25,256 nt of DNA from Candidatus Omnitrophota bacterium. Lineage in GTDB: Bacteria; Omnitrophota; Gorgyraeia; Tantalellales; Tantalellaceae. Below the pieces are notes generated by a model, which was given only the letters and a program-made list of their open reading frames with translations, had not been told where the DNA came from and did not search any database. The position numbers were made by a program, and so were the translations under genes. The stretch lies in NCBI GenBank assembly GCA_032126595.1, contig JAQBAV010000002.1:1-25256 (forward strand). Reading direction: 5' to 3'. Shown in pieces: positions 7,609 to 23,440 of this stretch (positions are counted from its first letter, which is position 1; every line of letters begins with the position of its first letter).

Positions 7609-7713
7609 GATGGCGGGTAATATGTTCGAGCTCAGACAGTCCTCGCTCCGACGGGCACCCCGTGAAACGGGGTCGCGAGGCTGCGGAACTCGCCGAACAC
7701 ACCACTCGTCATC
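7609..7713 (+). repeat. Structured intergenic element A, copy 1
   Basis: Outer stem GATGGCGGGT/ACTCGTCATC with 2 G-U pairs. Core CTCAGACAGTCCTC at 7631-7644 and CTGCGGAACTCG at 7681-7692. Inner hairpin ACCCCG-TGAAA-CGGGGT. Confidence 0.9.
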
Positions 7714-7739
7714 CTTTAAGCTAATATATTACTGGGGAA

Positions 7740-8354
7740 ATGGAGAGTATGTTAAAAGAGATATGTGAAGAGGCTATGTATGTAGGGATGGATATCGATC
7801 TTTCCGATTGCCACTATGGTGAGACGACAGGCACATCCGTTATTTCCCGGCCTACTAGTTATTATTATTTTCTCGCAGGCTTTGTTGCTCTTGAGGAGTG
7901 TGCGCAAGTCCTTGAGATAGGAACTAATTGCGGAGGCTCCATTATGTCGATCAGCAAGGGCCTTGATGCGGACGATATTACAGATAGGCGTTTAGTGACA
8001 GTGGATATCGCGCATAAAAATGAGGAAGGGCTTAAGGAATACCCGAAAGTTACAAGAGTGCATGGCGATTCTTTGAGCGGGGAGGTTGTGAAAAAGGTAG
8101 TAGGCTCTTTCAATAAAGAAATAGACCTACTTTATATTGATTCACTTCATGAATACGAACACACTAGAGAGAATATAGAAATTTATGCACCAAAACTAAA
8201 ACCGCGTTATATTATCCTGGATGATATAAGACAGACCGAAGGTATGAAAAAGCTTTGGGGAGAATTGAAAGAAGAGTTTGGGTGTAATGCGTTTGATGCT
8301 TCAGAGAGCGCGAAGAGGCACGGGGCGGGGTTTGGGGTCATAAAATATAGATAA
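7740..8354 (+). CDS. Class I SAM-dependent methyltransferase (Methyltransf_24/CmcI-like)
   Basis: Motif I 'VLEIGTNCGGS', 'LVTVDI', 'VHGDSL', 'IDLLYIDSLHEYE', 'YIILDDI'. Confidence 0.8.
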   Translation: MESMLKEICEEAMYVGMDIDLSDCHYGETTGTSVISRPTSYYYFLAGFVALEECAQVLEIGTNCGGSIMSISKGLDADDITDRRLVTVDIAHKNEEGLKEYPKVTRVHGDSLSGEVVKKVVGSFNKEIDLLYIDSLHEYEHTRENIEIYAPKLKPRYIILDDIRQTEGMKKLWGELKEEFGCNAFDASESAKRHGAGFGVIKYR

Positions 8355-8361
8355 TAGTTTT

Positions 8362-8444
8362 AAGAAAGGTGTATGTACCTCGGGACTCAGACAGTCCTCA
8401 GCCTTCGGCCTGCGGAACTCGTCCGAGACACATACACCTTTCTT
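8362..8444 (+). repeat. Structured intergenic element A, copy 2
   Basis: Perfect 15-bp outer stem AAGAAAGGTGTATGT/ACATACACCTTTCTT. Core at 8386-8399 and 8410-8421. Inner hairpin GCC-TTC-GGC. Confidence 0.9.
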
Positions 8445-8471
8445 TTTTGTTGCCCTGAAACTCTTATCGTC

Positions 8472-8521
8472 GGGGAGGACGGTGCTGATAATTCGGAAGG
8501 AAAAGCTACAGCTTTTCCTTC
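8472..8521 (+). repeat. Module B, degenerate copy with a different hairpin
   Basis: GGGGAG...GATAATTCGGAA as in the other B copies, then a perfect 11-bp hairpin GAAGGAAAAGC-taca-GCTTTTCCTTC. Confidence 0.6.
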
Positions 8522-8556
8522 TTCTTGTTATGGGCTTGTGTTTATAAGATGCAGAT

Positions 8557-8667
8557 AAAGGTTGGTATCGTACTTCGTGCTCGAACAGTCCTCGCCCCGA
8601 CGGGCACCCCGTGAAACGGGGTCGCGGGGCTGCGGAAACTGCGCGCGAAACACACTATCAACCCTTT
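8557..8667 (+). repeat. Structured intergenic element A, copy 3
   Basis: Outer stem GGTTGGTA/TATCAACC with a G-U pair. Core CTCGAACAGTCCTC at 8580-8593 and CTGCGGAAACTG at 8630-8641. Inner insert CCGACGGGCACCCCGTGAAACGGGGTCGCG is identical to that in copy 1. Confidence 0.9.
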
Positions 8668-8690
8668 TCATTAACGAAACATTACGGTTG

Positions 8691-8771
8691 GGGGAGGTAT
8701 AGTGATAATTCGGAAACGAACCTCACATGTTAAGACACCGGGGTTCGTTTTTCCTGGAATGGTTGGGGAGT
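8691..8771 (+). repeat. Module B, copy 1
   Basis: GGGGAG..GATAATTCGGAAACGAACC[...]GGGGTTCGTTTTTCCTGGAATGGTTGGGGAGT, homologous to 19189-19268 and 23133-23213. Confidence 0.85.
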
Positions 8772-8785
8772 GTTTTCCTTTTTAT

Positions 8786-8844
8786 AGGGACGGTTCTAAA
8801 TTCAAAGCTACATCCGTCCCGAATTTGAACTTACACTTGTCCCT
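8786..8844. repeat. REP-like palindromic element between convergent transcription units
   Basis: AGGGAC...GTCCCT ends, with inner GTTC(T)AAATTC/GAATTTGAAC. An alternative 7-bp stem GGGACGG/CCGTCCC is also possible. Confidence 0.65.
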
Positions 8845-8853
8845 GAAGAGAGG

Positions 8854-9993
8854 CTAATAGATCTCGTATTTTAAGAGGCGGCATTCGATATCACCGGTAT
8901 AGAAGGGGATGCGTCTGGATGCCGTGAGGCCCACCTTTTTAGAAAGTTCCCGGCTGCCTGTAAAGATATAACCATCATACCCCGTACATTTCTTCTTGAA
9001 GAAGTCGCCGATATTTTTGTATGTGTCAGCTAATTTTTTAACCTCGCCCATGCGTTCGCCGTATTCGGGGTTAAGAAGTACAATTCCCTTGCCTTCGGGA
9101 ATATCTGTTTCAGTGAAATCGCATACCTTAAAATCTATTAAGTGGTCAACTCCGCATGTTTTTGCATTCTTAATCGAAGCCTGAACAGCGTCCTCACTTC
9201 TATCTGTTGCAATTATTTTATAGTCAGTTTTTTTTTGGGCTCTTGCTAAAGCTTCCTTTCTCAAAGTGTACCAGTAATCGCTATTAAAATCCTTAAAGTG
9301 TTTAAAGGCAAAGTTACTTCTTAATAAACCCGGGGCTTTGTCCAGTGCGATCAAAGCAGCTTCTATCGCTAGAGTTCCGCTACCGCACATCGGGTTTACA
9401 AAGTGACTCTTGCCGTTATAACCGGATGCTAATACAACTGCCGCGGCAAGTGTTTCCTGCATGGGGGCCTTTAGGGGGAGTTTTCTGTAGCCTCTATCGG
9501 CGAGCTTGACTCCGGAAGTATTAAGATATATCCAGGCCTTGTTGCCTCTCCAGTATAGGTTAATTACAATGTTTTTCCTATCGGGTCCGGCGTTAGGTCT
9601 CCTGCCGCACTTATCTGTCATACGGTCGCATATAGCGTCTTTCAGCTTCTGATTGGCGAACATGGAATTTGTTATAGTGGGATTTTTTACTTGTGAAACT
9701 ATCGAAATATATTCAGTTGGAGGAATGATGTCCTCCCATTCAATCTTAGAGGCCTCACGGTATAGTTCGTCGGGAGAGGAGCATCTAAATTCTCCAATAT
9801 TAAAGAGAACATTATATGCGGTCCTGAGCTCAAGGTTCAGCTTATAAGTGTCCAGGAATTTTCCGCTTATGACAACACCTGTATCGTGCGATGATTCTAT
9901 CTTATGGCCAAGGCCAGTGATTTCCTTTTCCAAAAAAGGAGAAATTCCCGTTGCGCACGTAATTAGTATTTTGCTTTTCTTAGTTAGACTCAT
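8854..9993 (-). CDS. THUMP-domain class I SAM-dependent rRNA methyltransferase (RlmL/YpsC-like, single module)
   Basis: THUMP region followed by 'LNTSG..L..RGYR...LKAPMQETLAAA...NPMCGSGTLAIEAAL' and 'LLNPEYGERMG'. Confidence 0.88.
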   Translation of the reverse strand: MSLTKKSKILITCATGISPFLEKEITGLGHKIESSHDTGVVISGKFLDTYKLNLELRTAYNVLFNIGEFRCSSPDELYREASKIEWEDIIPPTEYISIVSQVKNPTITNSMFANQKLKDAICDRMTDKCGRRPNAGPDRKNIVINLYWRGNKAWIYLNTSGVKLADRGYRKLPLKAPMQETLAAAVVLASGYNGKSHFVNPMCGSGTLAIEAALIALDKAPGLLRSNFAFKHFKDFNSDYWYTLRKEALARAQKKTDYKIIATDRSEDAVQASIKNAKTCGVDHLIDFKVCDFTETDIPEGKGIVLLNPEYGERMGEVKKLADTYKNIGDFFKKKCTGYDGYIFTGSRELSKKVGLTASRRIPFYTGDIECRLLKYEIY

Positions 9994-10003
9994 ATGTCCT
10001 TAG

Positions 10004-10032
10004 AGTATAGCGTAATTTGTTTATAATTTGAA
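10004..10032 (-). promoter_or_regulatory. Candidate sigma70 promoter for the THUMP methyltransferase
   Basis: On the minus strand, TTCAAA (10032-10027), a 17-bp spacer, then TATACT (10009-10004). The start codon follows about 10 nt later. Confidence 0.45.
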
Positions 10033-10044
10033 GAGATAAAAACA

Positions 10045-10131
10045 ATAGTGGCAGGCGAACTACTCCGTGCTCGGACAGTCCTCGGCCTTTGGCCTGCGGA
10101 ACTGCGCGCGGAGCACTCCGCCTGCCACTAT
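10045..10131 (+). repeat. Structured intergenic element A, copy 4
   Basis: Perfect 13-bp outer stem ATAGTGGCAGGCG/CGCCTGCCACTAT. Core CTCGGACAGTCCTC at 10070-10083 and CTGCGGAACTG at 10094-10104. Inner hairpin GGCC-TTT-GGCC. Confidence 0.9.
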
Positions 10132-10251
10132 AATAAACCTAGAGATAAAACTTAATAGCACCTTTCTTTTTTCTGATGCACCCAAAATTCTCATCAAAGG
10201 AGGATTTTTATTTCTTGCTTTTGCAAACAACTTACCTTATTCTTAAAGACA

Positions 10252-11592
10252 ATGATTAAAACTGACGACTTAACAAAAGGCTCTGTAGGGAGAGAACTTT
10301 TTAGGCTTACTCTTCCCATGATATTTGGTGTATTCGCTATTATGGCATTCAATGTCATAGATACGTATTTCGTGGCGAAGCTCGGCACAAAAGAGCTTGC
10401 CGCTATGGCTTTTACATTCCCCGTGGTTTTTGTTATTGGCGCCATAACTATGGGGCTTGGCGTAGCCGCCTCATCAGTAATCTCAAGAGCAATAGGGCGA
10501 AAAGATTTTCATCAGGTAAGAAGGCTTACTGTAGATGCTCTTTTACTTTCGGTAATTATTGTAGTGATCTTTATTTTTGCGGGACTGGCAACCATGAAAA
10601 CCATATTCACAAGTATGGGGGCCACTAGCGATATCTATTACTTTATCGAAAAGTATATGAGAGTTTGGTATATAGGTGTCGGCTTTTTAGTTATACCCAT
10701 GGTAGGCAACAATGCTATAAGGGCCTCAGGAGACATGGTAACGCCCGCAGTAATAATGACTGTTTCCGCTATTTTAAATACAATTCTCGACCCTTTACTT
10801 ATATTTGGCTTAGCGGGATTCCCGCGTATGGGGATAGAGGGGGCCGCACTTGCTACAGTTATAACACGCTCGGTATCTTTAATCGTATCTTTGTCTGTCC
10901 TCCACTTTAGTAAAAGGATGCTGGAATTTTTTATTCCTACAATTAAGGAACTTATTAAGTCGTGGGGAGAGTTTCTTTATGTCGGCATACCTTCAGCGAT
11001 TTCTAATGTACTTTTTCCGATTACGATAGGTGTGGTTACAAGGATGGTGGCTTTTTATGGACCGGAGGCGGTCGCGGGATTTGGAGCGGCTATGCGTTTT
11101 GAAGCATTTGCTCTAATTATATTAATGGCGCTCTCTACAGCAATAGTACCTTTTGTAGGGCAGAACTGGGGGGCAAAGAGATTTGATCGTGTGCACTTAG
11201 CCCAGAGAGAGGGGAACAGTTTTGCTTTATTGTGGGGAGCATTGTGTTTTATTGTTCTATATTTTTCAGCTAATCTTGTCGGCCGAATCTTTAGCGATGA
11301 TCCCGGGGTAATTAAAAATATAGCAGATTATTTAAGGATCATGCCTCTAGGGTATGGGTTCGGAGGCGTATGCATGCTTACAGTATCTATTTTTAACGCC
11401 ATAAATAAACCCATCAAAGGAATACTACTTAATGCGATAAGATTTTTTGTCTTGTATATACCGCTTGCATATTTAGGCTTTAAGATCATGGACATAAAAG
11501 GTATATATTTCGGGCTAGTATTAGGCAGTGTAATAGGCGGGGTTATTTCTATTGTTTGGATAAGGCATACTTGCAGAGCATGCGAGAAGTAG
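10252..11592 (+). CDS. MATE-family efflux transporter
   Basis: 446 aa with about 12 hydrophobic segments. Motifs 'LT.GSVGRELFRLTLPM', 'DTYFVAKLGT..LAA' and 'LDPLLIFG..G.P.MGIEGAALAT'. Confidence 0.93.
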   Translation: MIKTDDLTKGSVGRELFRLTLPMIFGVFAIMAFNVIDTYFVAKLGTKELAAMAFTFPVVFVIGAITMGLGVAASSVISRAIGRKDFHQVRRLTVDALLLSVIIVVIFIFAGLATMKTIFTSMGATSDIYYFIEKYMRVWYIGVGFLVIPMVGNNAIRASGDMVTPAVIMTVSAILNTILDPLLIFGLAGFPRMGIEGAALATVITRSVSLIVSLSVLHFSKRMLEFFIPTIKELIKSWGEFLYVGIPSAISNVLFPITIGVVTRMVAFYGPEAVAGFGAAMRFEAFALIILMALSTAIVPFVGQNWGAKRFDRVHLAQREGNSFALLWGALCFIVLYFSANLVGRIFSDDPGVIKNIADYLRIMPLGYGFGGVCMLTVSIFNAINKPIKGILLNAIRFFVLYIPLAYLGFKIMDIKGIYFGLVLGSVIGGVISIVWIRHTCRACEK

Positions 11593-11748
11593 GTTATCTA
11601 GTAGCGGGTTGTGGCTTTGCAACTCTTCTTGGGGTATAATAACCTAGAAAATGGTTAAACATGGAGGGAACATGGAAGACTATAAACTGACCATTGAAGA
11701 AGCCGAGGAGTATTTGTTTGGGAAGTAATAGGCAATACGGGGAGTTAT

Positions 11749-12057
11749 ATGAATAAGCTGATTATTACACTTCTAATTTTTACGTTCCTACCAACAGCAG
11801 TCTACGCATCCACTGGTTATTATACTAGGGATGAGAAGGGTGTGATGCACTATAAAATTCATGACGAAGATTCTAGTTATGAACCGTCAAAGGATGTGGC
11901 TGGTACCAAAGAGGCCAAGAAAACAGTATATGCTAACAGACTTGATATGAAGTATCATAAAGAAGGGTGTAGATATTCAAGACGCACCGCAAATAGGATG
12001 ACAGCAGAAGAGGCAATAGAACTGGGATATCAGCCCTGTCAGAAGTGCAGGCCGTAA
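11749..12057 (+). CDS. Exported hypothetical protein with C-terminal Ada-metal-binding-like Cys/His motif
   Basis: Signal peptide (..PTAVYA) and C-terminal 'KYHKEGC...EEAIELGYQPCQKCRP'. SD GGGGAG. Confidence 0.7.
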   Translation: MNKLIITLLIFTFLPTAVYASTGYYTRDEKGVMHYKIHDEDSSYEPSKDVAGTKEAKKTVYANRLDMKYHKEGCRYSRRTANRMTAEEAIELGYQPCQKCRP

Positions 12058-12072
12058 ATAAGAACAGGAGGG

Positions 12073-12462
12073 ATGATGGAGATTTCTATACTTTTAGCAA
12101 AGATATTAGGACCGATGTACATTGTTATAGCGATAGGCATACTATTGAACATGAAGAATTATCAGACCGTTATGGAAGACTTTTCTCAAGAGCCGGCTCT
12201 GATTTACCTTGGAGGCCTTGTAGCTTTTATTTTTGGCATCATAATAGTGCTTTTTCATAATATATGGATGATGAATGGCCGCGTAATCATCACTATTATC
12301 GGGTGGATGGCTCTTATTAAGGGGGTTTGGCTAATCGTTTTCCCGAGAAGCTTAGCGTCTTCAGTGAGATTATTCAATAAAACCGGATTTTTAGCGGTAA
12401 GCATGGTGATAGTTTTTATTCTTGGAGCACTTCTTACTATAATGGGATATTTTCTAGTTTGA
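12073..12462 (+). CDS. Hypothetical integral membrane protein (about 4 TM)
   Basis: SD AGGAGG and four hydrophobic stretches; 'LAKILGP..IVIAIG...FHNIW...IITIIGWMALIKG'. Confidence 0.8.
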   Translation: MMEISILLAKILGPMYIVIAIGILLNMKNYQTVMEDFSQEPALIYLGGLVAFIFGIIIVLFHNIWMMNGRVIITIIGWMALIKGVWLIVFPRSLASSVRLFNKTGFLAVSMVIVFILGALLTIMGYFLV

Positions 12463-12475
12463 TAGGAGGGGCAAT

Positions 12476-12664
12476 ATGGAGTTGGAAAATTTTATAATAC
12501 CTTTGGGTGTGGCAACGTATTCATGTCTGGTCATATCAGTTATCACAGGACTGCTTATTTTTAAATTTCACGTAAAATGGATAAGTATAAAAATGCATAT
12601 TCTTTTTGGAATTGCTACGCTTATTTTAGGAACTTTTCACGCAGGAATAGTAATATTTTTTTGA
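12476..12664 (+). CDS. Small 2-TM membrane protein with His residues (HILFG...TFHAG)
   Basis: SD GGAGG. 62 aa and hydrophobic, with His residues flanking the second helix. Confidence 0.7.
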   Translation: MELENFIIPLGVATYSCLVISVITGLLIFKFHVKWISIKMHILFGIATLILGTFHAGIVIFF

Positions 12665-12681
12665 TTGATAAGGAGAATAGC

Positions 12682-12855
12682 ATGGTTACTAAGATTGCAA
12701 TTGGTGCTGTGATAGGCGGAGCGATCGGCTTTGGGATGAACTATCTTTGTATGATGACAGGGGGAGCATGTCCATTAATGAAGTTTAAAATAGTCGCGAT
12801 TTTTGTATGGGCGCTCATAGGGGCCGCGATAGGCGCTGCTGTAGGCAACAGATAA
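12682..12855 (+). CDS. Small Gly-rich 2-TM membrane protein with a CxxxGGACP loop (DUF6132-like)
   Basis: ATG 12682 follows AAGGAG, in frame with ORF 12577..12855. Translation MVTKIAIGAVIGGAIGFGMNYLCMMTGGACPLMK...GAAIGA. Confidence 0.7.
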   Translation: MVTKIAIGAVIGGAIGFGMNYLCMMTGGACPLMKFKIVAIFVWALIGAAIGAAVGNR

Positions 12856-12884
12856 AGACCTAAATCTCTAAACAAGGGGGAAAC

Positions 12885-13166
12885 ATGAAGAAAATCAGCG
12901 TTAAAAAAATAGTTGCAGGCGTTGCTATGACAACTCTTGTAGCAGGGCTAGCGACAGGAGCATATGCCGGTGTTAGTAAGTCTTCTTGCGGCAAAGGTTC
13001 TTGCGGCAAGTCTTCCTGCGGTTCTAAGGGGGCTAAAATGGAACAGGCAGGAAAAGCGGGCGATGAGCATTGTAAGGAAATGCCAGGCAAAAGAAAACTT
13101 GGTGCAGGTAACGAAATTGGTTGCAAGGGCAAGAGTTCTTGTGGTAAAGGTTCCTGCGGCAGTTAA
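12885..13166 (+). CDS. sbtA: RiPP precursor (SbtA/'selenobiotic'-like, Cys-only) with Sec-type signal peptide and five SCG motifs
   Basis: Leader MKKISVKKIVAGVAMTTLVAGLATGAYA, then KSSCGKGSCGKSSCG...KSSCGKGSCGS. 7 Cys. Directly upstream of a radical SAM/SPASM gene. Family assignment is from recall, not a search. Confidence 0.72.
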   Translation: MKKISVKKIVAGVAMTTLVAGLATGAYAGVSKSSCGKGSCGKSSCGSKGAKMEQAGKAGDEHCKEMPGKRKLGAGNEIGCKGKSSCGKGSCGS

Positions 13167-13189
13167 TATCGCTGTTAAGTTAGAAGTTT

Positions 13190-13226
13190 AAGTAGCCCGT
13201 TTCATTAAAAAGCGGGCTACTTTCTT
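13190..13226 (+). terminator. Hairpin (terminator or stabiliser) between precursor and maturase genes
   Basis: AAGTAGCCCG ... CGGGCTACTT, a 10-bp stem followed by TCTTTATT. Confidence 0.7.
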
Positions 13227-13234
13227 TATTAGCC

Positions 13235-14827
13235 ATGAATAAAAAAACCATAATCCGTATAAACAAGATCTTTAGTAGATGCAGGTCTTTATTGGGAGAC
13301 AAGGCCTGGGCCGAGATTATTAAGAATCTCGGTATAAACTTTGAACTTGAAGAGTTTCCGTCGTATATTGCCCAGCTTGCCAGGGAAGAAAAGGTCCCTA
13401 AATATATTTCTGAACTTGCCGCCTTCGAATGGGTTAAATATGCTATGTCTTTTTCTCCTCTAGGGGCAGGGAAAGATATAGAAAGAATAAAGATTAATCC
13501 CACCCTGGAGATATATGAACTTTCTTATGATTTTTCAGAGCTTTTTACATCGGAGGGTCCTTGGGGTGATATAAAAATAAAAAAGAATAAAGAGACAGTT
13601 CTTTTATGGCGCTCTCCCAAGACCGGAAAAGTAAACATTAAAAAAGCAGCCGATGATGATATGATCTCCATGAAAATAGCTATTGAAAATATAGCTACTA
13701 AGGATATCGTCAAAGAAACAGGATTATCTGTAAGCGATATAGATAATATGCTTCTTGCTAAAAGTGATGAAGGCATGATCTTGATGCCAATGTCCAAAAT
13801 AAAAAGAGATCCTTCGTTTTGTGATGATATTGGAAGCATTCCAGACGAGCAGTTAAGGGCTGACATTTTCACAATACAATGGCATATCACTAATGTATGC
13901 GACTTACATTGCAAACATTGCTATGACAGGGATAAGCGTTCGCCTCTTACTTTAAATCAGGGTAAGAAGGTCTTGAATGATTTGGATGAATTTTGTAAGA
14001 AAAAAAATGTAAGAGGGCATGTTTGTTTTTCAGGAGGAAACCCGTTTCTTTCACCTCACTTTTTTTCTTTGTATAAGGAGACCGCTGAAAGAGGGTACTC
14101 AACTTCCATTTTAGGAAACCCCACAACAAAAAAAGAGCTCCAACAGCTAATAGACATGCAAAAACCGGAATATTTTCAGGTTAGCCTTGAAGGATTGGAG
14201 GAACACAATGATCTAATAAGGGGGAAGGGCTTTTTTAAGAAGGTGATTGCGTTTCTTGATCTTTTAAAAGAGATGAATATATCCTCAGCTGTCATGCTTA
14301 CTCTTACAAAAGATAATATTAATGAGGTTTTTCTCCTTGCTGATGAGCTAAGTAAGCACTCAGACTATTTTACATTTAATCGATTATCTAACGTGGGGGA
14401 AGGAAAAAACCTTCTTCTTCCCAAGAAAAAAGAATACACCCAGTTTCTTAAAAAATATGTTAAAGCGTATAAAACTAACCCAATATTGGGTTTTAAGGAC
14501 AATTTAATAAACATTGTTCTTGAGAAAAAAGGCGTTAAGCCTTTTGGTGGATGTACGGGCTATGGCTGCGGGGCTGCTTTCAGCTTTGCAACAATACTTC
14601 CAGATGGGGAGGTTCATGCTTGCCGTAAATTTCCATCGATTATTGGCAATATTCTTGAGAGCAGCCTGTTAGATATATACAATTCCAAAAAAGCCGGTAA
14701 ATACAGATTAGGTTCAGAAGCTTGCAATAAGTGCTCATTAAAGCCTTACTGTGGAGGTTGCCTTGCCGCAACGAGCGGCGCAGGTATGGATATTTTCAAG
14801 GATGAGGATCCATATTGCTTCAAATAG
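13235..14827 (+). CDS. sbtM: Radical SAM/SPASM peptide maturase (SbtM-like) with N-terminal putative precursor-recognition domain
   Basis: CxxxCxxC in 'WHITNVCDLHCKHCY', 'FSGGNP', and SPASM cysteines 'GGCTGYGCGAA...VHACRK...CNKC...YCGGC...DPYCF'. About 200-aa N-terminal extension 'ELAAFEW...INPTLEIYELSYD' resembles DUF2063/HvfC-type domains. Confidence 0.8.
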   Translation: MNKKTIIRINKIFSRCRSLLGDKAWAEIIKNLGINFELEEFPSYIAQLAREEKVPKYISELAAFEWVKYAMSFSPLGAGKDIERIKINPTLEIYELSYDFSELFTSEGPWGDIKIKKNKETVLLWRSPKTGKVNIKKAADDDMISMKIAIENIATKDIVKETGLSVSDIDNMLLAKSDEGMILMPMSKIKRDPSFCDDIGSIPDEQLRADIFTIQWHITNVCDLHCKHCYDRDKRSPLTLNQGKKVLNDLDEFCKKKNVRGHVCFSGGNPFLSPHFFSLYKETAERGYSTSILGNPTTKKELQQLIDMQKPEYFQVSLEGLEEHNDLIRGKGFFKKVIAFLDLLKEMNISSAVMLTLTKDNINEVFLLADELSKHSDYFTFNRLSNVGEGKNLLLPKKKEYTQFLKKYVKAYKTNPILGFKDNLINIVLEKKGVKPFGGCTGYGCGAAFSFATILPDGEVHACRKFPSIIGNILESSLLDIYNSKKAGKYRLGSEACNKCSLKPYCGGCLAATSGAGMDIFKDEDPYCFK

Positions 14828-14847
14828 CCCCCGATACCCATATTCTA

Positions 14848-14875
14848 TTGACAAAACTTGGGCGAGTATTATAAT
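14848..14875 (+). promoter_or_regulatory. Consensus sigma70 promoter upstream of the EF-G paralogue
   Basis: TTGACA (14848-14853), a 16-bp spacer, then TATAAT (14870-14875). Confidence 0.8.
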
Positions 14876-14984
14876 AAAAATATTATATATAAAAGTGTTT
14901 CGTATTATTATCACTTCTACACGCGAGTCATGCATATCCCGTAGGTGAGGAAATTTCAAATCTAAACTTAAGGAGGTACTCAAA

Positions 14985-17033: not shown

Positions 17034-17037
17034 GTTC

Positions 17038-17098
17038 AGCTATAAGTTATAAGCCGTAAGCTGTAAAAAATATAGCTTAAAGCTTAAAACTTATAGCT
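17038..17098. repeat. Hairpin built from four heptamers per arm
   Basis: AGCTATA AGTTATA AGCCGTA AGCTGTA / TATAGCT TAAAGCT TAAAACT TATAGCT. Confidence 0.85.
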
Positions 17099-17125
17099 AC
17101 GAAAAGATTAAAAAAAAGGGGCAGT

Positions 17126-17878
17126 ATGTCCGGTCATTCAAAATGGTCTAGTATTAAACATAAAAAAGGCGCTGCGGATGCTAAGCGCGGAAAGCTTTTT
17201 ACTAAGCTTATTAGAGAAATTACTGTTTCTGCCAGAGAAGGCGGAGGAGACGCTGACTCTAATCCTCGCTTAAGGCTTGCTATACAAAAGGCAAAAGAAG
17301 CTAATATGCCTGCAGATAATATTGATCGCGGAGTTAAAAAAGGTACGGGTGAGCTCGAAGGTGTAAATTACGAGAATGTATCTTTTGAAGGATATGGGGT
17401 AGGTGGAGTAGCAGTTATTGTTGAGGGTCTTACAGATAACAAAAATCGCACTACAAGCGATGTAAGAAGCATTTTCTCAAAACGCGGCGGGAATATGGCA
17501 GGAGCAGGTTCAGTAGCTTTCCAGTTCGAAAGAAAAGGTGTTTTCTTGGTTAAAAAAGAAGATGCCAAGGAAGACGAACTTATGACTGTAGCCGTTGATG
17601 CCGGGGCGGAAGACTTCAATACCGACGAAGATTATTACGAAATAGTTTGCGCTCCGCAGGACTTTGACAAGGTGCGCAGCAAACTAACTAAAAAAGGCGT
17701 AAAATTAGAATCTGGCGAACTTAGCATGGAGCCAAAGAATACAGTTAAGGTAGATGACATTGAAACCGCTACGAAGATAATGAGCCTGATAGACGAACTT
17801 GAGGATAATGATGATGTTCAGAATGTCTATGCTAATTTTGATATTCCGGATGATATTCTTAAGAAGATAGAAGAATAA
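17126..17878 (+). CDS. yebC: YebC/PmpR-family protein
   Basis: 'MSGHSKWSSIKHKKGAADAKRGKLFTK...NPRLRLAI.KAK..NMP', 'EGYG.GGV', 'DDVQNVYAN'. Confidence 0.97.
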   Translation: MSGHSKWSSIKHKKGAADAKRGKLFTKLIREITVSAREGGGDADSNPRLRLAIQKAKEANMPADNIDRGVKKGTGELEGVNYENVSFEGYGVGGVAVIVEGLTDNKNRTTSDVRSIFSKRGGNMAGAGSVAFQFERKGVFLVKKEDAKEDELMTVAVDAGAEDFNTDEDYYEIVCAPQDFDKVRSKLTKKGVKLESGELSMEPKNTVKVDDIETATKIMSLIDELEDNDDVQNVYANFDIPDDILKKIEE

Positions 17879-17883
17879 TAAAT

Positions 17884-17941
17884 GGTTCATGGTTCAGCGT
17901 TCATAGTTCATCGACGAACCACAAACCACGAACTACGAACT
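17884..17941. repeat. Hairpin built from four heptamers per arm (second sequence type)
   Basis: GGTTCAT GGTTCAG CGTTCAT AGTTCAT cg ACGAACC ACAAACC ACGAACT ACGAACT. Confidence 0.85.
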
Positions 17942-17946
17942 AAATT

Positions 17947-18429
17947 ATGAAAATACTCGGAGTTGACCCAGGATTAATACGTACCGGATATGGTGTAATA
18001 GAATCTGATGGTCCGGAAAAGATGAAACTTATTGAAGCGGGGATCGTAAAAACTTCTTCAGAAGAATCTATATCGGAAAGACTAGTCACTATTTATAAGA
18101 ACTTAACCGATGTTATTGCCGAGCATAAGCCCGAAGTTCTTGTTCTTGAAAAACTTTATTCGCACTATAAACATCCAATCACATCAATACTTATGGGCCA
18201 TGCAAGAGGCGTTATATGTTTGGCTTCAGGCGTTAATAATGTGCGGTTAGTCAGCTATCCTGCCACACGCATTAAAAAAGCAGTTACAGGTAACGGCGCC
18301 GCAGCTAAAACTCAGGTACAAAGAATGGTAAAGATGCTTCTCTCGCTTGATAAGCTTCCAGAACCCCACGATGTAAGCGATGCACTTGCCATGGCTATAA
18401 GTTATGTTTACATGGAAGGAGTGAAATGA
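17947..18429 (+). CDS. ruvC: Crossover junction endodeoxyribonuclease RuvC
   Basis: 'ILGVDPG...TGYGVI', 'LEKLY', 'KKAVTGNG.A.K.QV', 'DVSDALA'. Confidence 0.96.
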   Translation: MKILGVDPGLIRTGYGVIESDGPEKMKLIEAGIVKTSSEESISERLVTIYKNLTDVIAEHKPEVLVLEKLYSHYKHPITSILMGHARGVICLASGVNNVRLVSYPATRIKKAVTGNGAAAKTQVQRMVKMLLSLDKLPEPHDVSDALAMAISYVYMEGVK

Positions 18430-19049
18430 TATCTAGAATTAAAGGCAAGATAATAAAGTCTAAGATTGATGCCCTAAATATAGAGAATAATGGGCTTTGT
18501 TACGAAGTGTTTGTTCCGGCGGCTGTAATGAAAGCCCTGGAGAAAGAGAGTAGGTTAGACGGACAAGTTGAACTTATCACTTATCATTACTATCAAATGG
18601 AGCCTTCCAGAGGCGTACCTGTCTTAATAGGGTTTCAAAATGAGGTTGAAAAAGAGTTTTTTGAAAAGTTTATTTCTGTTTCAGGGGTAGGCCCAAAGGC
18701 GGCATGCAGAGCCTTGGCCGAACCATTTTCTTTGATAGCCGGCGCCATAGATTCCGGAAATGTTTCTTTTTTGAAGAGTTTGCCGGGAATAGGAGAGACA
18801 AGAGCCCGTCAGATCGTCGCAAAACTTCAAGGCAAGGTCGGAAAATACGGACTCATACGCGATGAATTGATGGGAGACGTTAAGGTAGATGATGATATAA
18901 GAGGTGAAGCACTAGAGGTTCTCCTGCAGCTTCAATATAAAAGAGGGGAAGCTGAGGAGATGCTTAATAAGGCGCTCGAGAGAGTATCCAATATAAAAAC
19001 AAGCGAAGAGCTCCTAAATGAAGTTTATAAAGAGAGGATACAGAAATAG
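18426..19049 (+). CDS. ruvA: Holliday junction branch migration protein RuvA
   Basis: 'MISRIKG', HhH motifs 'ISVSGVGPK' and 'LPGIGE..A..IV..L.GK', C-terminal 'EALEVLLQLQY'. ATGA overlap with ruvC. Confidence 0.95.
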   Translation: MISRIKGKIIKSKIDALNIENNGLCYEVFVPAAVMKALEKESRLDGQVELITYHYYQMEPSRGVPVLIGFQNEVEKEFFEKFISVSGVGPKAACRALAEPFSLIAGAIDSGNVSFLKSLPGIGETRARQIVAKLQGKVGKYGLIRDELMGDVKVDDDIRGEALEVLLQLQYKRGEAEEMLNKALERVSNIKTSEELLNEVYKERIQK

Positions 19050-19079
19050 GTGATGAGTTGTATGGTAAGAAATAAAAAG

Positions 19080-19169
19080 AATGACAGGTTATATATTCGG
19101 CGCTCAAACAGTCCTCGCCCCGGTTTTATCGGGGCTGCGGAACTCGCGCCGAACACATTCCCTGTCATT
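19080..19169 (+). repeat. Structured intergenic element A, copy 5
   Basis: Outer stem AATGACAGG/CCTGTCATT. Core CTCAAACAGTCCTC at 19103-19116 and CTGCGGAACTCG at 19135-19146. Inner hairpin GCCCCGG-TTTTA-TCGGGGC. Confidence 0.9.
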
Positions 19170-19188
19170 TTGCACAATTAGCATCTTA

Positions 19189-19268
19189 GGGGAGTGAGCT
19201 GTTATAATTCGGAAACGAACCATATTATCAAGACAGCGGGGTTCGTCTTCCTGGGATGGTTGGGGAGT
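19189..19268 (+). repeat. Module B, copy 2 (contains TGtTATAAT at 19200-19208)
   Basis: GGGGAG...TGTTATAATTCGGAAACGAACC...GGTTCGTCTTCCTGGGATGGTTGGGGAGT. Confidence 0.85.
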
Positions 19269-19282
19269 ATAAATAAAAATAC

Positions 19283-19350
19283 TGGTGACCCGGTGACTTG
19301 GCAACTGGTGACAACTTTTGACATGTAACTTGTGACATATGACTTTTGAC
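19283..19350 (+). repeat. TGAC-periodic 8-mer/7-mer direct-repeat array (C1)
   Basis: TGGTGACC CGGTGACT TGGCAAC TGGTGAC AAC TTTTGAC ATGTAAC TTGTGAC ATATGAC TTTTGAC. Confidence 0.85.
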
Positions 19351-19366
19351 TAATTAGGTGATAAAT

Positions 19367-20410
19367 ATGGAAAATAATAGAGAAAAATTTGTTGATGACG
19401 CTGTTAGTCCGGTAAGGAGTGCCGACACTGATGACGACGTGGTATTGAATTTATCATTAAGGCCAAAAGAGCTCAAACATTTTGTAGGGCAAAAAGACGT
19501 GGTTGACTCACTATCAATAGCTCTTAAGGCATCTGTCAAAAGAGATGAGCCCATGGAGCATTTCCTTCTTTCCGGGCCTCCTGGACTTGGAAAAACGTCA
19601 CTGGCACATATCATAGCCAATGAAAGAGGCACCAAGATAACATCCACAAGCGGTCCCGCTATCGATAGAGCAGGGGATCTTATAGGCATCCTTACAAACC
19701 TTTCAGATGGCGATATTCTTTTTATTGATGAGATACATCGCCTTTCAAAGACCGTTGAGGAATTTATTTATCCTGCCATGGAAAACTATCAGATAGATTT
19801 TCTTGTTGATAAAGGGCCTTATGCTAAAACAATAAAGTTCAATCTTAAAAGATTTACTTTGATAGGAGCTACAACAAGGGCGGGGCTCTTAAGTGCACCC
19901 TTAAGGGACAGGTTCGGTATGTTTTTACATCTGGACTTTTATTCAGTGGAAGACCTTGAAGAGATAATTAAGCGATCAGCCCAGCTTTTAGGAATACCCA
20001 TGGATGCCGAAGGCGCCAGCGAGATAGCGCGCCGCTCAAGAGGCACTCCAAGGATAGCAAACCGTCTTTTAAGGAGAGTGAGGGACTGGGTGGAAGTTAA
20101 GTCTAATGGAAGGATCACCAAAGACGCTACCTTTGATGCTTTGGCAAGCCATGGTATAGATGGGGCAGGATTAGATAAGATGGACAGGAAGCTCCTCGAT
20201 GTCATACAAACTTCGTATAAGGGCGGCCCCGTGGGCATAGACGCAATAGCCGCATCATTGAATGAGGAGACGGATACAATCGAAGATGTTGTTGAGCCAT
20301 ATCTATTAAAGATGGGTTTTTTAAGAAGGACTTCGAGAGGAAGAGAGTTGACCGAAAAAGCCGTTGAGTATCTTGGAAAGAGCCCGGGGAAACAGGGGAA
20401 GATGTTTTAG
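19367..20410 (+). CDS. ruvB: Holliday junction branch migration ATPase RuvB
   Basis: ATG 19367 after AGGTG. 'LRPK.L..FVGQ', Walker A GPPGLGKT, 'LFIDEIHRL', 'GATTRAG.L..PLRDRFG', 'RGTPRIANRLLRRVRD'. Confidence 0.98.
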   Translation: MENNREKFVDDAVSPVRSADTDDDVVLNLSLRPKELKHFVGQKDVVDSLSIALKASVKRDEPMEHFLLSGPPGLGKTSLAHIIANERGTKITSTSGPAIDRAGDLIGILTNLSDGDILFIDEIHRLSKTVEEFIYPAMENYQIDFLVDKGPYAKTIKFNLKRFTLIGATTRAGLLSAPLRDRFGMFLHLDFYSVEDLEEIIKRSAQLLGIPMDAEGASEIARRSRGTPRIANRLLRRVRDWVEVKSNGRITKDATFDALASHGIDGAGLDKMDRKLLDVIQTSYKGGPVGIDAIAASLNEETDTIEDVVEPYLLKMGFLRRTSRGRELTEKAVEYLGKSPGKQGKMF

Positions 20411-20427
20411 GGGTATTTATTTTTATT

Positions 20428-20527
20428 TCATCCTCGCTAAAAACATGCGTGGATGACGATTTTGAATTTTCCTGGTGACCCGGTGACCCGGTGACTTGGT
20501 GACCCCTTTTGACATACGACTTTTAAC
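20428..20527 (+). repeat. Module D hairpin plus TGAC array (C2)
   Basis: TCATCC-T-CGC-taaaaacat-GCG-T-GGATGA, then GGTGACCC x2, GGTGACTT, GGTGACC, TTTTGAC ATACGAC TTTTAAC. Homologous to 23279-23367. Confidence 0.8.
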
Positions 20528-20531
20528 TATT

Positions 20532-20750
20532 ATGTTTCAGATTATTGGTAAGTATTTAGTTATATTTGGACTAGTTCTAGTTGCAATCGGGGGCATTTTT
20601 TATTTCGCCGGACGTCTTCCATTGTTTGGAAAGCTACCGGGAGATATTTTTATAAAGAGGGACAATTTTACTTTTTACTTTCCTCTTACGACATGCATTC
20701 TTATAAGCATAATTTTATCAATTCTTCTTTATCTTTTCTCAAAGAGATAA
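20532..20750 (+). CDS. DUF2905-family small membrane protein
   Basis: 'IGKYLVIFGLVL...G.LPGDI.IKR.NFTFYFPLTTCILISIILS'; usual neighbour of ruvB. Confidence 0.9.
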   Translation: MFQIIGKYLVIFGLVLVAIGGIFYFAGRLPLFGKLPGDIFIKRDNFTFYFPLTTCILISIILSILLYLFSKR

Positions 20751-21934
20751 CAAAACGTCCGGTAGGAATAGCGGCGGTAGTTTTTGTTATACTTTCTGTT
20801 CTTCTATTCTTTTTCTTTTTTCCGGTTATTTCTAAAAAAACCGAGGAACCCGTACTTTTAACCCGAGTAAGGATAGCTCACGATGAAAGCAACGTAAGAA
20901 TTGTCTTGAATGATAAGTTTAGAGTAGAAGACATAAAAACCGGTGAAACATTATTGAGCGATATGTTGCCCGGAGGAGTGGTTAATGTTTCAAAAACCTC
21001 TGGTGGGATAGGCCTAAACGGTGAAACCTTTACCTCCGAAGGGGTTACTTTTATATTTGCGAGTACCGGAGGGGTAATAGTCAACGATATCCCCTATAGG
21101 GGAACGGTAGATATCGTTAAAAATAAGAAGGACCTCAATGTAATAAACATTGTAGACATTGAAGACTATATTAAAGGCGTAGTGCCGTGTGAAGTAAATC
21201 CTTTATGGCCATTTGCTGCACTTAAGGCCCAGGCTATTGCTTCAAGAAGTTTTGCGGCATATCAAACAATAGTAAGAAGAAACAAAGATTTTGATCTTAC
21301 TGCAGATACTTATTCTCAGGTCTATAAAGGAAGATTAAGAGAAACCGCGAGAACCAATAAAGCCGTTAATGATACCCTTGGCAAAGTTCTTGCCTTTAAG
21401 GGCGAAATACTTCCAGGATATTTTCATTCATGTTGCGGCGGACACACTGAAGATGCTGCCGAACTGTGGGAACATAATTTAGAGCCCCTTAAAGGAGTTA
21501 AGTGTAAATGGTGTAGAGTATCACCACACTTTAAGTGGAGGGCTAGAATAAATAAAAAGGAGTTAGCCGAAAAATTAAATAAAGAAGGATATGATTTTAG
21601 CCGTGTAACCGGACTTGCCGAAGGCGCAAGAGATGCTTCGGGACGATTAGAATATGTTACCGTTGAAGATGGTCGGAAAAAAGAAGAGATCGACATTCTC
21701 AAGTTCAGAGCAATAGTTGGCAGGAGCACACTTAAAAGTGCAAATTTTCATATCGGCGGATTTTTTAAACCCTTTTCAATTAAGGGATTTGGTTGGGGGC
21801 ATGGAGTAGGGATGTGTCAGTGGGGAGCATTCGGCCTTGCCCTAAGGCGGCGAAGTGCAGAGAAAATACTTGAGTATTACTATCCCGGGGCTGAGATAGT
21901 TGATATAAAGAAAGTGCTACCTGGTAGTTTGTAG
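20693..21934 (+). CDS. SpoIID/LytB-domain protein (peptidoglycan lytic transglycosylase-like); true start uncertain (possibly ATA at 20747)
   Basis: 'YRG...IN..DIEDYIKGVVPCE..P.WP..ALKAQAIASRS', 'QVYKG', 'FHSCCGGHTE', 'GWGHGVGMCQWGA', 'ILEYYYPG'. Confidence 0.9.
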   Translation: MHSYKHNFINSSLSFLKEITKRPVGIAAVVFVILSVLLFFFFFPVISKKTEEPVLLTRVRIAHDESNVRIVLNDKFRVEDIKTGETLLSDMLPGGVVNVSKTSGGIGLNGETFTSEGVTFIFASTGGVIVNDIPYRGTVDIVKNKKDLNVINIVDIEDYIKGVVPCEVNPLWPFAALKAQAIASRSFAAYQTIVRRNKDFDLTADTYSQVYKGRLRETARTNKAVNDTLGKVLAFKGEILPGYFHSCCGGHTEDAAELWEHNLEPLKGVKCKWCRVSPHFKWRARINKKELAEKLNKEGYDFSRVTGLAEGARDASGRLEYVTVEDGRKKEEIDILKFRAIVGRSTLKSANFHIGGFFKPFSIKGFGWGHGVGMCQWGAFGLALRRRSAEKILEYYYPGAEIVDIKKVLPGSL

Positions 21935-21954
21935 TTAGTAGTTAGGAGTTTGTA
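21924..21954 (+). repeat. Short one-armed heptamer array overlapping the spoIID stop codon
   Basis: GTAGTTT GTAGTTA GTAGTTA GGAGTTT GTA. Confidence 0.6.
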
Positions 21955-21980
21955 TCCGGTAATTTGATGAGAAAGTAAAT

Positions 21981-22991
21981 ATGAAATTAAAAGATTTTTA
22001 TTATGAGCTTCCGGAAAAGTTAATTGCGCAGGAGCCTTTAACGGAGAGGGATAGTGCGCGACTCATGATTCTGGATAGAGGAAGCAGAGAAATTTCTGAG
22101 AGAGTTTTTAGAGATGTTTATGATTACATAAATGAAGGCGATTGCCTGGTTCTTAATAACACCCAGGTTATACCCGCCAGGCTCTATGGGAAAAGAGATA
22201 CCGGCGGTAAGGTTGAGATATTTTTGCTGGATTCACAGGGAGAAGACCCAAGAGCCCTGATACGACCTTCTAAAAAGATCAAAGAGGGCGAGAAGATAGA
22301 GCTGGAGAACGGTGTAATTGCGACAGTGCTCGGCGAAGCTGACGTGGGAAGGTTCGTGAAGTTTGATTCTTCCATTGAGAAGGTTTTAGAAGGAGGCCAC
22401 GTTCCTCTTCCGCCATATATAAGGCGCGAAGATACGGCAAGGGATATTGAGGATTATCAGACAGTGTATTCGTTAAGAGCAGGCGCTACAGCATCTCCTA
22501 CGGCAGGCTTACATTTTACTAGAGACCTTCTGGATGCTTTTAGAAGAAAAGGCGTGATAATTGAACAGGTTACGCTGCACACAAGCTATGGCACTTTTGC
22601 TCCGGTAAAAGAAGAAAACATTAGAGACCATAAAATGCATTCAGAGTTCTTTGAGATGAACGAGAAAACTGCCCGTGTGATAAATAAGGTTAAAACGTCA
22701 GGTCATAAAGTTTTTGCTGTAGGCACTACATCAACAAGAGTTCTTGAGACATCGGCAGATAAAGACGGGAAGATAAGGCCCTTAAAAGGAAAAACGGACC
22801 TATTTATTACGCCAGGATATTCGTTTAAAGTGGTGGACGGATTAATAACAAATTTTCATTTGCCGGAATCTACCTTGCTTATGCTGGTAAGCGCGCTTGC
22901 AGGTAAGGATTTTATTTTCGAAGCATACAAAAAAGCCATTAACAGTAAGTTCAGGTTTTTTTCGTATGGGGATGCGATGTTGATAATTTAG
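21981..22991 (+). CDS. queA: S-adenosylmethionine:tRNA ribosyltransferase-isomerase QueA
   Basis: 'DFYYELPEKLIAQEP...RDSARLM', 'VLNNTQVIPARL', 'PLPPYI', 'DYQTVY', 'ASPTAGLHFT', 'AVGTTSTRVLET', 'TNFHLPESTLL', 'RFFSYGDAM'. Confidence 0.98.
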   Translation: MKLKDFYYELPEKLIAQEPLTERDSARLMILDRGSREISERVFRDVYDYINEGDCLVLNNTQVIPARLYGKRDTGGKVEIFLLDSQGEDPRALIRPSKKIKEGEKIELENGVIATVLGEADVGRFVKFDSSIEKVLEGGHVPLPPYIRREDTARDIEDYQTVYSLRAGATASPTAGLHFTRDLLDAFRRKGVIIEQVTLHTSYGTFAPVKEENIRDHKMHSEFFEMNEKTARVINKVKTSGHKVFAVGTTSTRVLETSADKDGKIRPLKGKTDLFITPGYSFKVVDGLITNFHLPESTLLMLVSALAGKDFIFEAYKKAINSKFRFFSYGDAMLII

Positions 22992-23020
22992 GGTAAGATT
23001 GATATTTGACAGTAAATCAT

Positions 23021-23113
23021 ATGACAGCTCATGTATTCGGCGCTCAAACAGTCCTCGAATGGCAAACATTTTTGCCATCCTGCGGAACTCGCGGCGAACA
23101 CATTCCCTGTCAT
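23021..23113 (+). repeat. Structured intergenic element A, copy 6
   Basis: Outer stem ATGACAG/CTGTCAT. Core at 23043-23056 and 23080-23091. Inner hairpin ATGGCAAA-catt-TTTGCCAT. Confidence 0.9.
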
Positions 23114-23132
23114 TTTGTACAACTACCATCTT

Positions 23133-23213
23133 AGGGGAGTGAGATGTTATAATTCGGAAACGAACCATATTATCAAGACAACGGGGTTCGTCTTCCTGGG
23201 ATGGTTGGAGAGT
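23133..23213 (+). repeat. Module B, copy 3 (contains TGtTATAAT at 23145-23153)
   Basis: Near-identical to 19189-19268. Confidence 0.85.
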
Positions 23214-23236
23214 ATAAATAAATGCTGGTGACTTGA

Positions 23237-23313
23237 TGACAGTAAGATGTATGACAGCTCATGTATTCGGCGCTCAAATAAAAACATGCGGGGATAACGA
23301 TTTTGATTTTTTC
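23237..23313 (+). repeat. Truncated element A left arm fused to module D
   Basis: 23237-23278 repeats 23007-23048 (TGACAGTA......ATGACAGCTCATGTATTCGGCGCTCAAA) and then continues as TAAAAACATGCG.GGAT.ACGATTTTGA, as at 20438. Confidence 0.75.
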
Positions 23314-23440
23314 TGGTGACCCGGTGACCTGGCAACCGGTGACAATTTTTGACATATGACTTGTGACTTGGTGACCCGGTGACCCGGCAGCCGGTGACAA
23401 CTTTTGACATATGACTTGTGACTTTTTAACATTGTGACTT
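23314..23440 (+). repeat. Two tandem ~55-bp TGAC-array units (C3)
   Basis: 23314-23367 and 23369-23422 both read TGGTGACCCGGTGACC.GGCA.CCGGTGACAA.TTTTGACATATGACTTGTGAC, followed by further degenerate heptamers. Confidence 0.88.

Follow-up and report, generated by a model that had tools for sequence, protein, structure and literature searches.

Two kinds of dispersed palindromic sequence stand closest to the repeat described here. REP/REPIN (BIME) sequences are short imperfect palindromes dispersed in extragenic space, often 3' of genes and clustered; in REPINs, a hairpin of approximately 100 nucleotides (nt) is the replicating unit and is recognised by its structure and a few conserved bases. 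Integron attC sites lie directly 3' of an open reading frame (ORF) in a fixed orientation, conserve their structure rather than their sequence, and have two related boxes with an unpaired spacer between them, as well as extrahelical bases and a terminal structure that varies. Features of both are found in a repeat, here named element A, that we analyzed in a window of 25,256 nt (positions 1 to 25,256 of contig JAQBAV010000002.1, assembly GCA_032126595.1). The source is a metagenome-assembled genome (MAG) of Candidatus Omnitrophota (G000, 1.13 Mb, 76% complete), whose YebC-nearest relatives all carry the label Candidatus Omnitrophota. Element A is an uncatalogued structured repeat family, real and widespread. 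It is a kind of dispersed palindromic repeat that has REP/REPIN and attC as its closest analogues and is a member of neither; most likely, it corresponds in Omnitrophota to the elements of REP/REPIN or attC type, being recognised by its structure and spreading to new sites.

Like REP sequences, element A is dispersed between genes and includes tandem arrays, but it has no conserved GTAG-like foot. Its conservation lies in the middle of the hairpin, and feet and flanks are non-homologous between subfamilies. It further differs from REP/REPIN in being strictly oriented to genes and in showing no RAYT gene with copies on its flanks and no correlation with such genes; abundant Y1_Tnp genes in this bacterial family are a likeness to REP/REPIN. 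The arms of element A (GTGTTCC...GGAACAC) are not those of attC (RYYYAAC...GTTRRRY), and 12–20 base pairs (bp) of extra stem lie outside its boxes. It also moves alone, whereas attC moves with a gene, and it sits between conserved core genes (putative groEL, ruvA-ruvB, metH) without cassette arrays (intI was not searched for). With ERIC and Correia-type repeats it shares an intergenic length of approximately 100–150 bp, long RNA hairpins, internal insertion variants, and the ability to separate operon genes and to bring promoter or terminator activity. However, those repeats keep their terminal inverted repeat sequence and occur in both orientations, whereas in element A the termini vary and the internal core is constant. 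Variable termini between subfamilies also set it apart from miniature inverted-repeat transposable elements, and no duplication is recognisable, in comparisons too divergent to decide.

The window contains six copies of element A, all on the + strand, at 7609–7713 (c1), 8362–8444 (c2), 8557–8667 (c3), 10045–10131 (c4), 19080–19169 (c5) and 23021–23113 (c6). A preliminary description, made from the letters of this stretch, had placed them there, and both alignment and covariance-model matches confirmed it (c1, 7616–7704, 49.4 bits; c2, 8371–8433, 59.3 bits; c3, 8566–8655, 55.8 bits; c4, 10056–10118, 64.1 bits; c5, 19089–19158, 79.7 bits; c6, 23029–23103, 70.4 bits). Several other parts of its anatomy also held. 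In the alignment, ACAGTCCTC and CTGCGGAA are invariant in all six copies, and ahead of them stands CTC followed by a purine pair (AG, AG, GA, GG, AA and AA from c1 to c6), so that all four purine pairs occur. Four unrelated types of apical hairpin are present, among them a long bipartite one in c1, GCC-UUC-GGC in c2, a long one in c3 and GGCC-UUU-GGCC in c4. The outer stems (24–35 bp) pair in every copy yet differ between copies, with the exception of c5 and c6, which share one stem, are 95% identical over 143 nt and carry unrelated apical hairpins. The 15-mer GCTCRRACAGTCCTC, with at most 2 mismatches, was observed 6 times against 0.08 expected in window shuffles, and for the two-part core pattern the expectation was 0. 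Fold z-scores of the six copies relative to shuffles ranged from -3.8 to -6.8 on the + strand and from -4.5 to -9.8 on the - strand.

A unit of element A is approximately 85–115 nt long and folds as one interrupted hairpin of 35–45 bp. Copy-by-copy analysis of the outer stem revealed no sequence homology between subfamilies; its inner part is semi-conserved (GUGUUCC-N-GC / GC-N-GGAACAC) and is followed by the core bulge, in which the 5 nt UCRRA stand opposite a single C. The inner helix is a second, imperfect box, (C)AGUCC/GGA-A-CU(G), with a bulged A, and is followed by a U·C opposition and a bulged U. The apical hairpin (11 to approximately 40 nt) is freely swapped, with 44 distinct sequences. 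Divergent classes, found in G014, in G022 and as a second class in G023, have UU/AA in place of the CC/GG pairs and lack the UC/CUGC loop, which leaves GC-UCARA-CAGU ... ACU(G)-C-GC as the universal core. The core had been described as invariant and non-paired. This is correct for its unpaired part, but AGUCC pairs with GGA(A)CU, and this pairing covaries from CC/GG to UU/AA in the divergent classes.

For searches, we built a covariance model (R1) of 70 positions and 23 pairs. It is restricted to the inner part of the element, since the outer stem was not recovered by RNAalifold from a MAFFT alignment. In a set of 67 distinct sequences, 89% of the cells were paired, 19 of the 23 model pairs had changes on both sides, and the covariation score was 0.42, compared with 0.14 for shuffles and 0.07 or less for slid partner controls; the alignment behind this score was fitted to the model, which favours the structure. 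The covariation is strong. The preliminary view of a structured element, in which the core is conserved, the inner hairpin can be exchanged and the outer stems covary, was upheld.

R1 finds copies both in this genome and in its relatives. Together with a relaxed pattern, it yielded at least 21 copies in the source MAG. Matches were present in 27 of 54 genomes of the same family, representing 23 of 43 genera, with 1–27 copies per genome, and outside the family in 6 genomes from 6 other families of the class. Scans of Rfam 15 on both strands with the window, short stretches and the relatives, at the gathering score and at E up to 10, returned nothing at element A. The preliminary description had suggested a likeness to Flavo-1 RNA, which our scans did not support: there was no Flavo-1 match on either strand with E up to 10, lax filters and short stretches, and the two have nothing in common beyond containing a hairpin. 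The literature on Omnitrophota repeats and RNA motifs contained nothing relevant that we could find. Because element A is widespread, strongly covarying and without an Rfam match, it is a ready-made seed for a new model.

Near-identical subfamilies of element A occur in G000 and in its relative G001, where six copies share a unit of approximately 230 nt. Between ruvA and ruvB, the source MAG has a gap of 308 nt filled with element A (c5) and two companion modules, B and C, compared with 0–25 nt in three relatives; in two other relatives the gap is filled by other repeats. None of the nine relatives examined has a copy of element A at this locus, and a tenth locus was only partly visible. Similarly, the two genes flanking one G001 copy directly abut in G041. 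Some copies, as at ruvA-ruvB, are lineage-specific insertions. Other copy loci are shared between genomes. The arrangement groEL, 1–3 copies of element A, flavin mononucleotide (FMN) riboswitch, ribBA is found in three genera, in G002, G019 and G015 (loci L016, L017 and L115; riboswitch confirmed with Rfam), and contig C6 of the source MAG carries the ribBA side with two copies at the contig end and an FMN riboswitch recognised by eye only. The groEL copies of G019 and G015 have homologous stems with four consecutive compensatory double transitions, and their apical hairpins are unrelated. Further shared loci are metH (G002 and G022) and udg (G001 and G061). Decayed copies were also seen (on contig C11 of the source MAG, in L016 at 1286–1347, in L110 and as the second copy in L111). 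The only copy of G019 had suggested groEL as an ancestral home of the element; we rejected this idea, since the sole or few copies of G059, G045 and G063 follow other genes.

The position of the copies relative to genes is highly regular. Among the 38 copies with a callable upstream gene, 35 lie 3' of a gene on the same strand. Tandem contexts are 22:0 in sense orientation, after correction of one seemingly antisense case that was a spurious ORF (Pfam shows the real genes to be sense), and there are 9 convergent and 1–2 divergent sites. The distance from the stop codon to the core start has a median of 75 nt and is 90 nt or less in 23 of 35 copies, so the foot of the hairpin often begins 5–40 nt past the stop. 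The genes upstream are of many ordinary kinds: ABC-F, methyltransferase, ruvA, queA and metH are supported by Pfam, and others are probably groEL, udg, pyk, pyrG and fabH, as judged by their C-terminal sequences only. No promoter was found at a fixed position beside the hairpin on either strand, and a generic scan for promoters and terminators was uninformative. GC skew along the orientation of the element is positive for all true copies in the source MAG, a signal inseparable from coding-strand composition.

To determine which strand folds, we counted the stem mismatches of 47 de-duplicated stems, read on the + strand, in a manner blind to mismatch type. The preliminary description had reported the mismatches to be G-T on the + strand and had concluded that + strand RNA or single-stranded DNA is the folded species. 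We found the reverse: A·C outnumbers G·T by 82 to 37 (p 4.5e-5; per stem, 28 versus 5) and pyrimidine-pyrimidine (Y·Y) outnumbers purine-purine (R·R) oppositions by 56 to 14. In the variable outer part only, these ratios were 46:16 and 36:8, and under a strict count of isolated mismatches with two Watson-Crick pairs on each side in that same part they were 17:6 (p 0.03) and 11:1 (p 0.006). In the six window copies, A·C is at least as frequent as G·T. Two positions recur with opposite directions (U·G at position 2 and A·C at position 8). Folding energies agree with the mismatch spectrum: when closed by a neutral loop, 37 of 48 stems were stabler as - strand RNA and 6 as + strand RNA, and all six window copies fold better on the - strand. 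The apical triloops, TTY on the + strand, read C-GAA-G or C-AAA-G on the - strand. As a control, 103 terminator-like hairpins of the same genome had 46 G·T and 29 A·C on the transcribed strand, where an intrinsic terminator tolerates wobble pairs; in element A, A·C exceeds G·T on the sense strand. At fourfold-degenerate sites of + strand genes T exceeds A, and mutation pressure should therefore favour G·T on the + strand, which argues against a mutational origin of the bias. Altogether, these indirect lines of evidence point to the mRNA-complementary strand as the likelier of the two to fold.

The explanation that we favour, tentatively and at somewhat less than an even chance, is that a protein acting in trans recognises the folded core, with antisense single-stranded DNA as the most likely substrate. 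The comparisons show that whole hairpins multiply in the genomes and land in new intergenic sites a few to tens of bases past a stop codon, that insertions always take one orientation relative to the upstream gene, and that some copies persist for long, their pairing maintained by compensatory changes. The two related boxes with their fixed irregularities would form the recognition site of a structure-specific protein acting in trans, which could be a recombinase or transposase or else a binding or processing protein. Selection may see mainly the fold of the strand complementary to the mRNA; if so, single-stranded DNA would be the likelier molecule, an antisense transcript a less likely one, and sense mRNA would be disfavoured. 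After insertion, the element would probably be co-transcribed at the 3' end of the upstream mRNA, where the hairpin may incidentally end or protect the transcript.

Several observations weigh against recognition by a trans-acting protein on antisense single-stranded DNA. No mobilising or binding protein for element A was identified. The preliminary description had suggested looking for a co-occurring RAYT/TnpA or recombinase, and for RAYT/TnpA no association emerged: Y1_Tnp (PF01797) is present in 48 of 54 genomes and uncorrelated with element A, it was not seen in the assembled part of G000, G051 and G016 (75–81% complete MAGs, fragmented at repeats, so that this absence is weak), and it does not stand next to any copy. 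RVT_1, present in 12 of 54 genomes only, is likewise uncorrelated with element A. Neither a target-site duplication nor an exact insertion boundary could be defined at ruvA-ruvB or the G001 sites, because the relatives are just approximately 71–75% identical in the matched flanking DNA. The strand asymmetry is only moderate under strict counting, with the p values given above, and part of it stems from the two recurrent positions. If genes are co-oriented with replication, it is the + strand that would be exposed as lagging-strand template, not the - strand. Finally, in G019 element A is the only structure between groEL and the rib promoter, which fits a role in the sense mRNA. The Y1_Tnp (RAYT-like) genes of these genomes encode 160–340 amino acids, with up to 17 matches per genome. 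R1, run with filters off on four Y1_Tnp loci, found no element, so that element A-like hairpins are not placed there as they would be for IS200/IS605 ends or PATE.

That role in the sense mRNA is the alternative that survives best, although we regard it as rather unlikely. The hairpin would be transcribed at the upstream gene's 3' end and act as a terminator of unusual type, as a stabiliser that protects the 3' end from exonucleases, or as a processing signal of the RNase III type, in which the asymmetric internal loop would direct the cleavage, as in the phage T7 early processing sites; proliferation would be a secondary feature. Such a role would account for the strict sense orientation directly after stop codons, the short distance to the core and the large excess of convergent over divergent sites, as well as for element A being the sole structure after groEL in G019. 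In G002, however, a canonical terminator already precedes the copies that follow groEL. The downstream T tract is similarly divided. In the source MAG, 12 of 19 listed copies have a run of at least 4 T at the stem end, but over all 47 copies the count is only 18 (mirrored controls, 8 and 6), and the run is missing from whole subfamilies (G001 and G111). We rejected the simple terminator reading because of this inconsistency, as the preliminary description had also done. Public RNA data comprise one RNA library with few contigs of this organism and give neither strand nor ends; one of these contigs carries a copy at a depth similar to that of the neighbouring genes, which would fit transcription with them (strand unknown, DNA carry-over possible). 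The mismatch spectrum weighs on the other side, since it is the reverse both of what sense RNA pairing predicts and of what the canonical terminators of this genome show. In addition, termination needs no tandem arrays of 2–3 copies.

A bolder form of the favoured explanation would make element A a chromosomal, non-integron analogue of attC. It would be a site of recombination or mobilisation, present only when single-stranded DNA of the mRNA-complementary strand is folded, and would be read by a structure-specific enzyme. We consider this unlikely, and equally so that the enzyme reads the two GTYCC/GGRAC boxes, the UCRRA bulge and the extrahelical bases. In addition to the likenesses given at the outset, element A may resemble attC in folding on the strand complementary to the ORF, which the mismatch spectrum favours indirectly and with only moderate significance. 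If true, this reading would mean that mobile DNA coded by structure, and aimed at the space immediately behind stop codons, forms a new class.

It is quite unlikely, in our estimation, that the functional molecule is RNA of the antisense strand, either a small RNA that is transcribed from the - strand and has the hairpin at its end, or a terminator or insulator by which antisense transcripts are kept out of the upstream gene. The better folding of the - strand, with G·U and purine-purine oppositions, agrees with such a molecule, and its core internal loop, GCA/GA, could form tandem G·A pairs. Module B also has a promoter-like match on the - strand in 3 of 3 window copies, and several copies of element A have a T-rich tail on that strand. 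Against this, module B accompanies only about half of the copies, 38 non-redundant copies show no -10-like box at a constant spacing ahead of the hairpin on the - strand, a run of at least 4 A on the left of the stem, which corresponds to a U tract on the - strand, is present in only 12 of 47 copies, and no RNA run is listed for the region with element A and module B.

Very unlikely is also that these are decaying selfish palindromes without selection, whose pairing is kept only by template-switch (quasipalindrome) correction during replication. Some copies are indeed visibly decayed, one is truncated, and many other palindromic repeat families exist in these genomes. However, 23 genera and the orthologous loci retain the exact core despite turnover of the stems and apical hairpins, and a symmetric correction would not be expected to produce a fixed orientation and strand-asymmetric mismatches. 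Related genomes carry several such abundant families (L021 of G001 contig C9, L146–L149 of G041 and G042, and L107); one is the perfect palindrome GTAGCTGGGGTTTAAACCCCAGCTAC, with dozens of copies in G041, and another is a repeat of 60 nt that is present more than 20 times in G042.

That element A is a novel ribozyme that cleaves itself, or some different RNA with catalytic or ligand-binding activity, is highly improbable; in this reading the core would be the active site, and the scaffold would consist of the stems and apical hairpin. A conserved core, peripheral helices of variable length, many copies per genome, lack of an Rfam match and a distribution comparable to that of bacterial hammerhead and twister motifs would fit it, but there is no junction or pseudoknot, the divergent classes swap most of the core for ordinary U-A pairs so that a helix with a 5-nt bulge remains, and the Rfam ribozyme models (hammerhead, twister, twister-sister, pistol, hatchet, HDV-like and hairpin) gave no match at E up to 10, nor any in the relatives.

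In the window, c1 is flanked by an ABC-F gene that stops at 7599 and an accessory methyltransferase gene that starts at 7740, and c2 starts 8 nt past the stop of the latter and is followed by TTTTTT. This gene (7740–8354, Methyltransf_24 / CmcI-like) is tightly flanked by c1 and c2 and is considered accessory because it occurs in 2 of 54 family genomes (G000 and G020, 70% identity). A gene-cassette model was rejected as a general rule: the G020 homologue has no flanking copies, and other copies lie between conserved genes. Copy c3 is the second in the same convergent intergenic region as c2 and is followed by module B, c4 is the sole window copy in a divergent intergenic region (rlmL-like gene on the - strand, MatE gene on the + strand), and c6 lies 3' of queA and 5' of module B. 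A truncated half copy at 23237–23278 (+ strand) duplicates, close to c6, that copy's left flank and left arm; it breaks off inside the bulge, directly after GCTCAAA, and continues into an unrelated repeat that recurs at 20438–20491. Elsewhere in the window (12885–14827), an ORF for a Cys-rich protein of 93 amino acids adjoins a radical SAM/SPASM gene (Pfam).

Another conserved element, module B, is approximately 100 nt long and has the pattern GT(T/G)ATAATTCGGAAACGAACC, 16–18 nt, GGGGTTCGTCTTCC-CTGGRATGG. It is present on the + strand after c3 (8680–8771, with the conserved ATAATTCGGAAACGAACC ... GGGGTTCGTCTTCC hairpin), c5 (19172–19277) and c6 (23117–23222), and contains an extended -10-like TGNTATAAT on the + strand in addition to its hairpin. 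It stands behind element A in 11 of approximately 21 copies, with a variable linker between them, occurs also on contigs C136, C10, C5, C124, C148, C75, C73 and C6 of the source MAG, and matches nothing in Rfam. The module behind element A in G001 is another one of approximately 100 nt (B'). Arrays of heptamer-type repeats (TGGTGAC, CCGGTGAC, CTTTTGACAT and CTTGTGACA) lie at 19283–19356, 20474–20533 and 23314–23428, upstream of ruvB, a SpoIID-like gene and the ORF at 23434, respectively. Similar arrays are found on more than 20 contigs of the MAG, and the relatives have other heptamer arrays at ruvA-ruvB.

Omnitrophota are uncultivated, and their non-coding repertoire is essentially undescribed. 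In these genomes, element A marks the 3' ends of genes and splits operons such as ruvA-ruvB, and the MAG assemblies break at these repeats. Its strict sense orientation with an antisense-favouring mismatch spectrum is a combination that, among known elements, is typical of integron attC. The partner protein, once found, would bring to light a new mechanism of DNA movement or else a new system acting at mRNA 3' ends.

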